Positions 4,001 through 34,000 of a DNA stretch of 64,000 nt are shown in pieces. The DNA comes from Malacoraja senta (lineage: Eukaryota): assembly GCA_038087875.1 (NCBI GenBank), contig CM075987.1:28150001-28214000 (forward strand), given 5' to 3'. The translations under genes and the position numbers were made by a program. The notes under the pieces are model-generated. The model had not been told where the DNA came from. It saw nothing but the letters and a program-made list of their open reading frames with translations, and did no database searches. The stretch's first letter is position 1. Each line of letters opens with the position of its first letter.

Positions 4001-7000
4001 ATTTTTTGTACTTTTATACTTTTGTACTTTTATCTTTTTAAAATGGTGAATGCATAATTTCCTTTCTTGATTTCTTGCTATTTCTTATGACTTACATACA
4101 AGATCATCCAGGTTTGGCTGAGCAGACATGCTAAACTATCTCGCCTTTAAAACATTCAGCTTTTTCTACCTTCATATTTTCCCATCTGCTCTATCTACGC
4201 CTTCTTGCCTACTCAACAAAATTTTCCCCCTTTACATCTTTCTTAGAGTTTATTTGCCTAATTAGTCAACTTGGATACAAGTCATTAATATAGATTGTAG
4301 CTCACCAACTTTTTTTTTCTTCTGAATTTCACTAAAGTTCCTGTGGATCTATCATACTGTACTTGTTAACCCTTCAACAAAATTGCAATGGATTTGTGAA
4401 ATCCCATTTTCTTATCTGTCTTGTTTACAAAATGCTGAAAAGTTTCTTATATTTGCCAAACATGACATTCCACTCAAAAACATATCCGCTATGCCTCTTG
4501 AAAGTGATTTGCGAAGTTATCATGTTAATAAAAATAAATTGTTTCTCCTACTGATGTCAAGATAATTTGCTGTAGTTCTGTTTTTTCACTCCTTTGGTGA
4601 ATAGTGTGGTTGCTTCCTACCCCACAGGATAGAGAGCCTAGGGAATTAGGGAACTTCAAAGCCAATTCATCCAACCTTTCCAGAATCACCAGAATTAAAA
4701 AAATGAAAACAATAGGCAATAGACAATAGGTGCTGGAGCAGTCCATTTGGCCCTTCAAGCCAGCACCGCCATTCAATGTGATCATGGCTGATCATCCCCA
4801 ATCAGTACCCCGTTCCTGCCTTCTCCCTATATTCCCTGACTCCGCTATTTTTAAGAGACCTATCTAGCTCTCTCTTGAAAGCATCCAGAGAACCTGCCTC
4901 CACCGCCCTCTGAGGCAGAGAATTCCACCGACTCACCACTCTCTGTGAGAAAAAGTGTTTCCTCGTCTCTGTTCTAAATGGCTTACTCCTTATTCTTAAA
5001 CTGTGGCCCCTGGTTCTGGACTCCCCCAACATCGGGAACATGTTTCCTGCCTCTAGCGTGTCCAAGCCCTTAACAATCTTATATGTTTCAATGAGATATC
5101 CTCTCATCCTTCTAAACTCCAGAGTGTACAAGCCCAGATGCTCCATTCTCTCAGCATATGACAGTCCCGCCATCCGGGAATTGACCTTGTAACCTACCAA
5201 CTATGTCAAAGTGTCAGCAATTACAGAGCGAATGGGTAGTTGGGAATTGATGAAGGTTCATGTAAGGGCAATGGTATATTGGATTACCTCAATAATATTA
5301 AAAAGTTCAAGAATATCAGAAAAAGAAGGCAAAATGTTAATGCGTAAATGTTACTGTGATAATATTGTGTAAATGTTGGTGTCCAGATTATATTCTAATA
5401 CTAATCACATTTATTTTGCTTTATTTCACACTCATTCTAACTTCCAGGAATCAACACCTTGAAGGCCCAGAGTAAGTTTCCTCTAGTTTTAAACTTTTTG
5501 GCTTCTGTTTGCAATTCCAGGATGGAACTGTCAGTGCCTATAAAGATGCATTAAGCAGTTGCCCAATGAAGTATTGTTCATGGGGTGCCTGGTCATTGTG
5601 AAATTCAGTAGTGCATGCACAGAGCTCAAAATGTGTAGTAGTGTGACAAAGATAAGACATTTCCTTCAAGTATTCTGTCAGACTGAAGCTTGCAAAGAAA
5701 GTCTTGGTTCAGGTACAGGGTTTTGCAGGAGAGAGAAAGGAAGAAAGGAAAAGAGAGTCATGGGCAATAAATGAGCTGACGGTTTGGGCGAGGGTTGGCT
5801 GCTGAAGTTGGGAAGTGGAAGTATTGGTTATTAGAGGGTGAAGTTCATAGTTAGGAATGAGATGATTGTTAGCTTTGGATGGCAGTTTGGGGTGTGTGGT
5901 TAAAGGAGAACAAATATTGAGTTGGCACAGGTTAGTACTGTGATTGATGGGAGGGAGCGGGGGGGGGGGGGGGGGTGTCATAGAACATAGAACAGTGCAA
6001 CACAATAATAGGCCCTACAGCCCATAAGGTCCTTGCTGAACATGATGGCAAGTCCATCATATTTCCAGTATCAGTAGATTTTTGCTTTACTATGAAGACA
6101 AATTAGTTACTGAAGATCAAATATTATACTGATGGAGTTCAGTTTTTAGTATAATTATTTTCTCATATTTTAATTTCTAGGTATTATCCAGATGCAACTA
6201 GATCAAGGCAAGATAACTTATCTTACTTAATGTTCTGAACCTTTGACTTAGACAAGCTCAATCATTTTCAAAAACATTCAGTTGAAAATAATCAATCTCC
6301 TGATCCACACTAAAATGTCTTGATGTTTCCTGCCTCCATTCTTGTTGCCCCTTTTCCCCATTCTCTCTTCTTTCACTTTTCTTCATGTACTCTTGCTATC
6401 TCCGAATTCTTCATCTTTCCCTTGGCAATGGACATTAATCTTTATCTTATCCTGTTATTATACTGTATGTGACTAGTGTGTTTCTTTCTGCCTTGATTTC
6501 TCAAAGTATAAAGCATGAAGTTTCTAGGTAGATCAATGTTTCATGTCACATTTTTTGGCAGTCACACGTTGACACACCACATCACTCACCATCAGATTCA
6601 CCTGTATGGAAGGTAGATTCATTATTTTCTCAGTACTCACTCTTTTTTTCTATCCTGTTGTTAATCAGTAAATCAGATGTATAATACCATGTGAATTTTT
6701 CATACACCTCTGCTACATGTCATCCAACTCTAAAACCATCTTAGGTGTTCCTACATGCCCCAACCAAAGAAGATTACTTGCTAAATATTATTACTAAATA
6801 TAGTTTTTCACAGGGAGGGGACAATCGTTTTTCACATCTCTAGAAAGATCAGTACTTTATCTCCATCATTGCCAATGTTCTGGCCAAGCCATACAGGTGA
6901 ATATTGTAAAGATTAACTAGTCCAGCAGCTGTGTAAAGGAAACCAAGCAAGGTTTCTTTTGTAAAGAGCTCTTACCATAATCAGCTTTCTCAATTACATG

Positions 7001-31000: not shown

Positions 31001-34000
31001 CCCCAGCACTGACCCCTGCTGAACTCCGCTAGTCACTGGCAGCAAACCAGAAAAAGACCCCTTTATTGCCACTCTTTGCCTTCTACCATCCAGCCAACCT
31101 GCTGTCCATGCTAGTATCTGTCCTTTGATACCATGGGCTCTCATCTTCCTGAGCAGCCTCCCATGTGGCACCTTTTCAAAAGGCTTTCTGAAAATCAAAG
31201 TAAACAACATCTACTGACTATCCTTTGTCTGTCCTGCTATTTACTTCTTCAAATATATCCAGCAAATTTGTCAAGCAAGACCTCCCCTTCACAAAGCTAT
31301 GCTGACATCGGCTTATTTTATCGTGAGCTTCTAAGTACTCCGTAACCTCATCCTTTTTAATGCACTCTAGAATCTTACTAACCACCGGTCAGACTGGCCA
31401 GCCTATAGTTCCTACTATTCTGCTTTGCTTCCTTCTTGTGCAGCGGGATAATATTGGTAATTTTCCAATCATCTAGGACCACTCCTGACTCTAGTGATTC
31501 CTGTAATATCACTGTCAATGCCCCCACAATCTCTAAAGCCTCTTTCAGAACCCTAGTGTGCAGTCCATCTGGTCCAGGTGACTTATCCACCTTCAGCCCT
31601 TTCAGCTTCCCAAGCGCCTTCTTAACTTCCACCCCCTGACTCTCTTGAATTTCTGGCACTTTGCCGGTGTCTTCTACCGTGAAGACTGATACAAACAAGT
31701 AATTCAACTCTCCTGAAGGGCTGCAGATCCTGTTTCCATGCTGTATCTCTAAAACTAGTTGTTGGATATGACTCTGCGGTGCCTCTATGTGCTTAGTGTC
31801 TGTTTCAACAACTGGTTTAATTTTTGATTATCAGAACACTAAACTATGTAAAAATCAGAATTATTTTCAGAATGCATTTAGTTTTCTTATTTCCCTAGTT
31901 TCATCGCTTTCAAACATATTGATGTATCAGTTTATTTGCTGAATTCTATCTCATAAACTGAAGCAAGCTGGCGCACCAATATATAGCGAGTGTACTACAC
32001 GTCAGGATTATAAAACTGTGACTAGTGAGAATAAATCTGTGACAACCAGTTCAATTGTGTGGGCATGTTATATGATACAGTAAACAATGAGATGGATATT
32101 GCAAGGAATATTCTATTATTTAAGATTCAATTGTTGGTGATAGTATAGATATTAATATATATAATTGTTATGTGTAGGAAGGAACTGCAGATGCTGGTTT
32201 AAACCAAAGATAGACACAAAGTGTTGGAGTAACTCAGTGGAACAGGCAGCATTTCTGGAGAAGGAATAGGTGACGTTTTAGGTCGAGACCCTTCTTCAGA
32301 CAGAGCCGGGAGAAAGGGGAATGAGTGATATAGACGGTGATGTAGAGAGATATAGAACAAATGAATGAAAGATACAATTGTTGATATGCAATGCATGATA
32401 ATTGTTATCATGTTATAGAGAGACTGGATACGATGACATGCAAATGAGCTAGAATAGATCAAAAAATATCAAAATAAGGAGCAATTCTACTTTAAGCTAT
32501 GAACTAATTTCATTAAGTTTATTTCTACCTGACAATTCTGATTTAAATTTCCAGTTCACACTATGAAGACGATGGAACGGGGTAAGATATAATTTCTATC
32601 CTATTATTTCGTTCTTGCTTCCCGCCCCAGCTCCCCTTCTTGCAATAATTGGTTTCCCAGCTCCCATACTTAGTAGAAACAAGGAATTGCAGGTGCTAGT
32701 TTTTAAAAAAAGACACAACTGGCTGGAGCAGCGCAGCGGGTCAGACTGATGTTAGGGTGTGAAACGAAAGCTGGAAGAGAGTAGGGGCAGGACACAGATG
32801 GATACAAGTGAGGGGGGGTTTGATCAGCAGTTGGTTGGACAGAGGCCAAAAATGAAAAGACAGGAGGTGTGAGACAAAGGTTTGAAGAGTTCTGAATTGT
32901 GAAGTTCGAGAAAGAAATGTAGGTGGAAGTGGCAGGAGATGGGAGAAATAGGTGCAAGTTCAGATGGGGTACAGGGGAAAGGAGGGGGGGTGGGAAGAAA
33001 GGAAGGGTGGAAGAAGTAATGGAGAGGGTGCTGGTTAACTAGAATTGAAGAATTCAATGACCCAAGCGGAATATGAGGTGCTGTTCCTCCAGTTTGTCTG
33101 TGCCCTCATTCTGGCAATGGAGGAGGTGCATGACAGAAAGATCAGTACGGGAATGGGAAAAAGAGGTTAAAATGGTTAACTACTGGGAGATTCAGTAAGT
33201 CTTGGCAGACCGAGCGCAAGTGTTCGGTGAAACAGTCACCAAGTCCACATTTGGTCAAACCAATGTAGAGGAGGCCATATCGGGAACACCAAACGCAGTA
33301 GATGAGGTTAGAAAAGGTGCACCTGAACTTCTGTCTTACCTGAAAGAACTGCTGGGGTCCCGGGATGGAGATGAGAGAGGAGGTATAGAGATAGGTGTTA
33401 CATCTCTTGCGGTTGCAGGGGAAAATACCTGGGGTTAGGATGGTTTGAGTGGGAATGGATGAGTGAACCAATGAGTTGCGGGCAGAGCAATCTCTGCGGA
33501 AGTTGGAAATAGATGGGAATGGGAAGATGTGGGATCACATTGGATGTGACGGAATTGTCGGAGGATGCAGAGGCCCTACATGTAGACAACGTCTACCGCA
33601 CTCCCCTCATCAGTTTTCTTGGTCACCTCTTTAAAAAGCTATTGTTAATTACAGTATAACCCATAGAAACAGTACTTTGTAAATGTACAAAATTAATTGG
33701 AAGCAAGAGGACACACTTTTCAATAAGTAATGATGCTACAATGCTGAATCTTATCTATCGCAAAGCAAACCTTGGTATTTTCCACACCTGCGCAAAACAA
33801 AATCGACCCTTGTAATTTTAACTTAAAATGTAATTGAACGTTTTCTTGAATTCTCCATGTACGACTCAAGTTGAAATTAATGTGTTCTATAATAAAATGT
33901 CCATGAATCTTTATGGCTTGTTAAGTTAATCAGTTGCATTTTTGACATTCTACACAAATTACCATCGACCATTTTAGACCATATTTAATTAAATATTGAT

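Follow-up and report, generated by a model that had tools for sequence, protein, structure and literature searches.

Seven probable 24- to 27-nt exons in an uncharacterised shark-and-ray gene for a predicted membrane protein in Malacoraja senta

Gene model and microexon set

The window analysed here is a 64,000-nt stretch of the Malacoraja senta genome (assembly GCA_038087875.1, contig CM075987.1, positions 28,150,001 to 28,214,000 of the forward strand). It contains part of one uncharacterised gene, which very likely includes a set of seven exons of 24 to 27 nt (microexons). Positions count from the first base of the window, negative positions lie upstream of it, and the gene is on the plus strand. 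The rest of the gene was located with a scan that covered 150 kb on the upstream side of the window and 50 kb on the downstream side. The gene model contains 39 exons over 161 kb (-103437 to 57505), with all internal splice sites canonical. The exons join into a single open frame of 767 residues. The little-skate protein LOC129712172 was mapped exon by exon, and 678 of 761 aligned residues (89%) are identical to its isoform X4.

The signal-peptide, stalk, and transmembrane exons lie 84 to 103 kb upstream of the window. The first exon is hydrophobic and contains a Kozak ATG. The stalk is short and Ser/Thr rich with two N-x-S/T sites. The protein has one strong hydrophobic segment, the predicted transmembrane helix. 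A 160-nt exon encodes both this helix and a Cys-x-Cys motif and lies 84 kb upstream of the window. All 34 internal exons that follow are multiples of three in length and in phase 2-2, and 11 of them are 27 nt or shorter. Exons of at most 36 nt hold 405 of the 2297 coding nt (18%). The gene is predicted to encode a one-pass membrane protein with a long tail and is a single-copy gene of sharks and rays.

The seven microexons are likewise multiples of three and in phase 2-2. Joined in silico, they contain no stop in the phase-2 frame. Microexon 1 (5448..5471) is 24 nt long with a TTCCAG acceptor and a GTAAGT donor. It is the weakest member, and 5 of its 7 residues are identical to the little skate. 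Microexon 2 (6181..6207; 27 nt) uses a GC donor and shares 7 of 8 residues with the little skate. Microexon 3 (11601..11624) is one codon shorter at 24 nt, with 7 of 7 residues identical. Microexon 4 (21200..21226; 27 nt, 7 of 8 residues) is the top match to the RSR-type units of the sawshark. Microexon 5 (22491..22517; 27 nt, 7 of 8 residues) is of the DNQ type and has two clear counterpart units in the sawshark, with scores of 31 and 37. Microexon 6 (25585..25611; 27 nt) also shares 7 of 8 residues. Microexon 7 (32555..32581; 27 nt, 6 of 8 residues) is a diverged acidic member. Microexons 2, 3, 4, and 6 are the core copies.

A motif scan of the window with the splice motifs of a preliminary description returned exactly these seven segments. 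The counts given there were exact. Five of the seven use a TTTCTAG acceptor and the remaining two TTCCAG, four end in ATCAAG, and six are followed by a G[TC][AG]AGAT donor. The peptides reported there are also those read here in the phase-2 frame. Neither the TTTCTAG acceptor (Fisher p 2.6e-4) nor the donor (Fisher p 2.4e-5) was present in any of 20 other exons of the gene. Selection by motif does not explain the set, because the independent little-skate protein model gives the same seven exons. There they account for all but one of eight consecutive exons of the interval; the remaining one is an alternative 87-nt exon (25828..25914).

The pattern of acceptor, 18 to 21 nt, ATCAAG, and donor matched four times in the 1.94-Gb genome, all within the microexon interval, and its reversed control did not match; as the pattern was derived from the four ATCAAG copies, the result bears on the absence of dispersed copies and not on any surprise at four matches. 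A DNA search of the genome with 181 bases around 21200 matched only 21200 itself and 11601. Because both searches matched only within the interval, the microexons are a local family and not a dispersed repeat. A transposon origin was rejected, as none of the seven lies within a dispersed repeat or recurs at another place in the genome.

Repeats account for 38% of the microexon interval. Two simple repeats lie in the introns, a 13-bp minisatellite with some 47 copies (26765-27372) and a long TC microsatellite (17144-17500). Reverse-transcriptase-like frames of a LINE retrotransposon, which we take to be CR1-like, fill introns at 19385-20730 and as many shorter pieces. A doubtful segment at 16951..16976 may be a decayed eighth copy. 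It is 26 nt long, with a family acceptor and a weak GTATTA donor, and has no counterpart in the little-skate model. Its profile score of 14.2 falls between those of the other exons and the family members.

Conservation in relatives and probable duplication of the microexons

Uncharacterised orthologues were assigned by the membrane exon. They are from Leucoraja (little skate, LOC129712172), Pristis (sawfish, LOC127582304), Mobula (devil ray, LOC134359957), Scyliorhinus (catshark, LOC119955955), Pristiophorus (sawshark), and Narcine (electric ray). The membrane exon is identical at 51 of 52 residues between the two skates and is 74 to 98% identical across the orthologues. Their tails vary in repeat type and length, and several models end early. 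A membrane-exon search retrieved six proteins among 181 candidates, all uncharacterised and all from skate, rays, and sawshark. The 52-residue membrane exon matched six of 1.84 billion representatives, all of them from sharks or rays, with the catshark as an addition; a short hydrophobic query of this kind has limited reach, and absence from bony vertebrates is not established by it. The microexon region of the little-skate protein matched 1 of 156 candidates, the little-skate model itself. We found no paper naming three of the orthologue LOC identifiers. We also found none on elasmobranch microexons in a search that excluded supplements, which could list these genes.

The little-skate RefSeq model contains all seven microexon peptides in the same order, with 46 of 54 whole-codon residues identical. 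All seven residues at the junctions after the microexons are those predicted from the split codons of M. senta. Just 5' of the set lies a 45-nt phase 2-2 tail exon (966..1010), which is skipped in little-skate isoform X3. The new junction residue in X3, Trp, is the one given by the split codon TG-G of the M. senta genome.

The sawshark orthologue contains a run of 9-residue units at the corresponding place. Three consecutive skate units align to this run with 19 of 38 residues identical (score 86, versus 34.6 +/- 4.8 and a maximum of 55 in 500 shuffles). Units of the RSR and DNQ types are both present in sawshark and skate, so both types would predate the shark-skate split. These lineages parted 200 to 300 million years ago. 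Copies within either type may have multiplied separately in shark and skate. Of 24 predicted sawshark isoforms, 15 were compared (14 against X3), and all differences are in-frame gains or losses. Most involve single units of 9 to 10 residues and the rest longer blocks (19 to 28 residues). Three are units of the microexon-like run.

The core four (6181, 11601, 21200, and 25585) show the clearest homology to one another. BLASTN aligned five of their six pairs over 51 to 74 nt with 73 to 83% identity, spanning the acceptor, exon, and donor. Beyond the exon, the homology continues for about 14 nt of intron upstream and 7 to 25 nt of intron downstream. Similarity of pairs within the family exceeded that of family-to-other pairs in the exon (0.45 versus 0.28), at -20..-8 (0.56 versus 0.37), and at +8..+25 (0.39 versus 0.30). 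These pairs are not independent, and p values for similarity are indicative only. The comparison of exon flanks suggested in the preliminary description gave homology near the splice sites for the core four but no excess among family pairs at -57..-8 (p 0.49). In leave-one-out profiles, each of the seven outscored all 31 other exons of the gene, whose maximum was 10.5 to 12.1. The core four scored 32.9 to 41.4, microexon 7 scored 24.1, microexon 1 scored 18.5, and microexon 5 scored 16.3.

An old tandem exon duplication, with introns that have since diverged, likely explains the core four. This is the origin that had been proposed for all seven. It carries over less firmly to microexons 1, 5, and 7, for which a duplication origin is the weaker claim on the same sequence comparisons. 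These three may be real exons of separate origin, with only the four ATCAAG copies being duplicates and the strong splice signals shared because short exons need them. No exon-spanning BLASTN match joins any of the three to the other microexons, and their exon identity to the others is 25 to 54%. Microexon 1, scored with the profile of the other six (18.5), does not exceed what the reverse strand gives by chance (up to 20.6). The peptide of microexon 5 is of a different type that was already distinct in the sawshark. However, the other short exons of the gene (21 to 36 nt) do not carry these signals (0 of 20 exons). Each of the three outscores all 31 other exons in leave-one-out. Microexons 5 and 7 also share the donor G[T][AG]AGATAT and the 27-nt length with the core. 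We consider a separate origin of the three rather unlikely.

Several observations weigh against reading the seven segments as coding exons that arose by duplication. The case for exons rests on predicted RefSeq and UniRef models of relatives and not on reads of this species. Predicted models of this type follow transcript alignments. Conservation in relatives, raised in the preliminary description, holds for the little skate and the sawshark run but fails in the sawfish and devil-ray models, which have no match to the microexon run (z -0.8 and -1.5). In the catshark and the electric ray, the predicted proteins stop shortly past the membrane helix, and the run is present in two of six other species. 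The microexons are 85% conserved between the skates, no better than the whole protein (89%). None of the four little-skate isoforms lacks any of the seven, and their alternative splicing in skates is unsupported. On balance, we think it very likely that the seven segments are coding exons of a shark-and-ray gene for a predicted membrane protein. At least four of them are probably old tandem copies of one exon, duplicated together with the intron sequence beside it.

Younger duplications and the predicted tail

The gene was earlier described as expanded by exon duplication twice, which is too few. At least five age layers of duplication are visible, the microexon set being one. The others are a 3.1-kb duplication (98.5 to 98.9% identity), one pair at 94%, an array at 35.7 to 47.2 kb with flanks at 74 to 97%, and two pairs at 66%. 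The young tandem array (35701..47172) contains eight intact phase 2-2 exons of 63 or 72 nt that were copied with their introns. They start at 35701, 38655, 40258, 41108, 43179, 44383, 45028, and 47110. A dead copy near 36248-36315 has lost its acceptor AG and is not a multiple of three. The array units of the little-skate model are similar to, not identical with, those of M. senta. The 3.1-kb tandem duplication carries a 27-nt exon twice, at -28310 and -25212 (L005:1690-1716 and 4788-4814). The little-skate model contains this exon once, and the duplication is either very recent or an assembly artefact. Different repeats were amplified in the tails of the sawshark, devil ray, and sawfish.

Other exons of the window also belong to the tail. 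The alternative 87-nt exon at 25828..25914 is Cys rich and hydrophobic and is not of the microexon family. It has a weak GTCCAT donor, is 96% identical to the little skate, and is present in little-skate isoforms X1 to X3 but not X4. It could supply lipidation sites or touch the membrane a second time. A 162-nt phase 2-2 exon (34019..34180) shares 46 of 53 residues with the little skate, and a 69-nt exon (52965..53033) shares 20 of 22. The penultimate exon (54810..54881; 72 nt) is acidic and contains Tyr. It resembles a C-terminal stretch of the sawshark protein (score 79; shuffle mean 35, maximum 71). The last exon (57481..57589) contains the stop codon TAG at 57503-57505 and an AATAAA signal at 57584-57589.

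The tail contains about 620 residues, with 18% Ser, 10% Pro, and 8% Arg. It has 13 SP, 9 RS, and 21 Tyr. It would be cytoplasmic, because a signal peptide stands in front. The AlphaFold model has helices only at residues 2-16, 100-134, and 136-148 and no strand, with pLDDT below 50 for 667 of 765 residues. From this model, the tail is predicted to be disordered. As all tail exons are multiples of three in phase 2-2, any of them can be gained or lost without a frame shift. Unequal crossing-over between neighbouring intron-exon units would keep adding cassettes. Old copies would be left with just the exon and the splice signals, and their introns would fill with retrotransposons. Each microexon would add one motif of 8 to 9 residues, with an aromatic residue near the start and often Arg-Ser-Arg at the end, to the predicted disordered tail.

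The protein may be anchored in the membrane and use its tail as a phosphorylatable, multivalent scaffold, in which the number of motifs would matter more than their exact sequence. For this role, our judgement is evenly balanced. The AlphaFold input was a five-row alignment, so the low pLDDT is weak evidence of disorder. A role in sperm or testis is a guess, which we hold tentatively.

The chief competitor of the scaffold role is near-neutrality. The tail repeats, including the microexons, would then be frame-preserving copies tolerated in a disordered linker, and the membrane segment alone would matter. In line with this, the membrane exon is nearly invariant between the skates while the tail drifts, the repeats differ from lineage to lineage, and hardly any tail is present in the catshark and electric-ray models. 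In the young array, the pN of 0.15 about equals the intron difference of 0.155. The pooled dN/dS of the array is 2.1, which is not reliable as a sign of positive selection, as it comes from 28 non-independent pairs of 18 codons and pN equals the intron difference. On the other side, three units are still alignable between skate and sawshark, all seven microexon frames are intact in two skates, and the last exons can also be aligned to the sawshark, with a modest margin. Near-neutrality of the tail is possible but appears unlikely.

It is far less probable still that annotation programs stitched in pieces of intron that merely look like exons, either fragments of repeats or splice-like words that arose by chance, since, although 38% of the interval is repeats and the support comes from relatives' models rather than reads, the segments lie outside dispersed repeats without genomic copies elsewhere, all seven are multiples of three that are open in the single frame used by the rest of the gene, and the microexon peptide is conserved to the sawshark.

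Neighbouring genes, known families, and significance

The downstream neighbours of the gene are a phostensin/taperin-family gene on the minus strand (L019:7191-7280) and ALAD on the plus strand (L022:3611-6845). The upstream neighbour is a C-type-lectin-like exon on the minus strand (L014:2162-2317), with a lectin match below the cut-off. A possible distant paralogue lies 4 Mb away on the same contig (24048366-24048510). It is a weak second hit of the membrane exon that shares its Cys-Asp-Cys motif and its phases, 1 to 2. The hhalign probability is 87%, and it has no database relatives.

No known family was assigned. Six whole proteins matched no Pfam family at E<=0.1, and only sub-threshold hydrophobic matches appeared at E<=10. 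Leads from the ESM Atlas were generic one-pass membrane proteins, at 0.90 or below, and were rejected. The top lead, TMEM154 (PF15102; 0.90), was rejected as well. None of the 39 matches to its profile was on this contig, the best was on contig C1, and hmmscan gave no match. TMEM210 (PF15195; PMC9226692) was considered for what we took to be a likeness in its Cys-x-Cys motif and helix and for its presumed position near TPRN. It was rejected because neither the membrane exon nor the whole proteins matched its profile. A genome search with the profile at E<=1 was also negative, which is a weak test, as it gave nothing at any locus.

The chicken BG genes of the butyrophilin family offer a parallel without homology. 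According to the accessible part of PMC5938342, they encode one-pass membrane proteins with a long cytoplasmic tail from many 21-nt exons of varying number, and they are alternatively spliced. The skate gene likewise encodes a predicted one-pass protein with a long tail from many small exons. The same part of that source gives BG an Ig-V ectodomain, a heptad coiled-coil tail, and a multigene family (PMC5938342). The skate gene, in contrast, has phase-2 exons of 21 to 162 nt, a Pro-rich non-helical tail, and a single copy. No Pfam match or AlphaFold strand points to an Ig-V ectodomain in the skate protein. One 21-nt exon occurs among the 34, and no tail helix is predicted after residue 148.

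In Schistosoma SmPoMuc, a 27-bp exon is repeated in tandem together with its flanking introns (PMC2576457, PMC4350168, in the parts available). Schistosome micro-exon genes have coding regions composed mostly of small symmetric microexons and are apparently restricted to flatworms (same parts of PMC2576457 and PMC4350168). The skate gene resembles them in its small symmetric exons and in tandem copying with introns, and homology is not claimed. It differs in that its repeats are predicted to be intracellular, and very small symmetric exons hold only the minor share of its coding region given above.

Neural microexons that depend on SRRM4 are 27 nt or shorter and frame preserving, and many lack a UGC motif (bioRxiv 10.64898/2026.01.16.699960, available part). 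The skate microexons share the size and the preserved frame, but they are paralogous copies in a lineage-restricted gene and not single conserved inserts. UGC upstream of the acceptor (-20..-3) is present in one of the seven, which lowers but does not exclude regulation of this type. Two features of tandemly duplicated symmetric exons are present. Length in multiples of three and uniform phase hold for 7 of 7 microexons and 34 of 34 tail exons, and homology reaches into the flanking intron for the core four.

A bolder reading, which we regard as doubtful, is that of a shark-and-ray "accordion" protein. A near-invariant anchor would carry a signalling tail of about 34 plug-in phase-2 cassettes. 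Amplification specific to each lineage and combinatorial skipping of single 9-residue units would yield dozens of different tails, on which diversifying selection would act (in the young array, pN > pS). Such a protein would be an intracellular vertebrate counterpart of schistosome micro-exon variation, for example in sperm or immune cells.

A public protein model of a related skate already includes the exons, and this way of building a gene is a known one. Here it is seen in an uncharacterised gene, and the surprise is moderate. The finding draws attention to a gene that is unstudied and was found in sharks and rays only, with a membrane segment that is 74 to 98% conserved and a tail with fast turnover. 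Its symmetric-phase tail shows how microexons can be born by duplication. This one gene provides a natural time series of exon duplication, from copies that are 99% identical down to those in which the splice signals alone are preserved.

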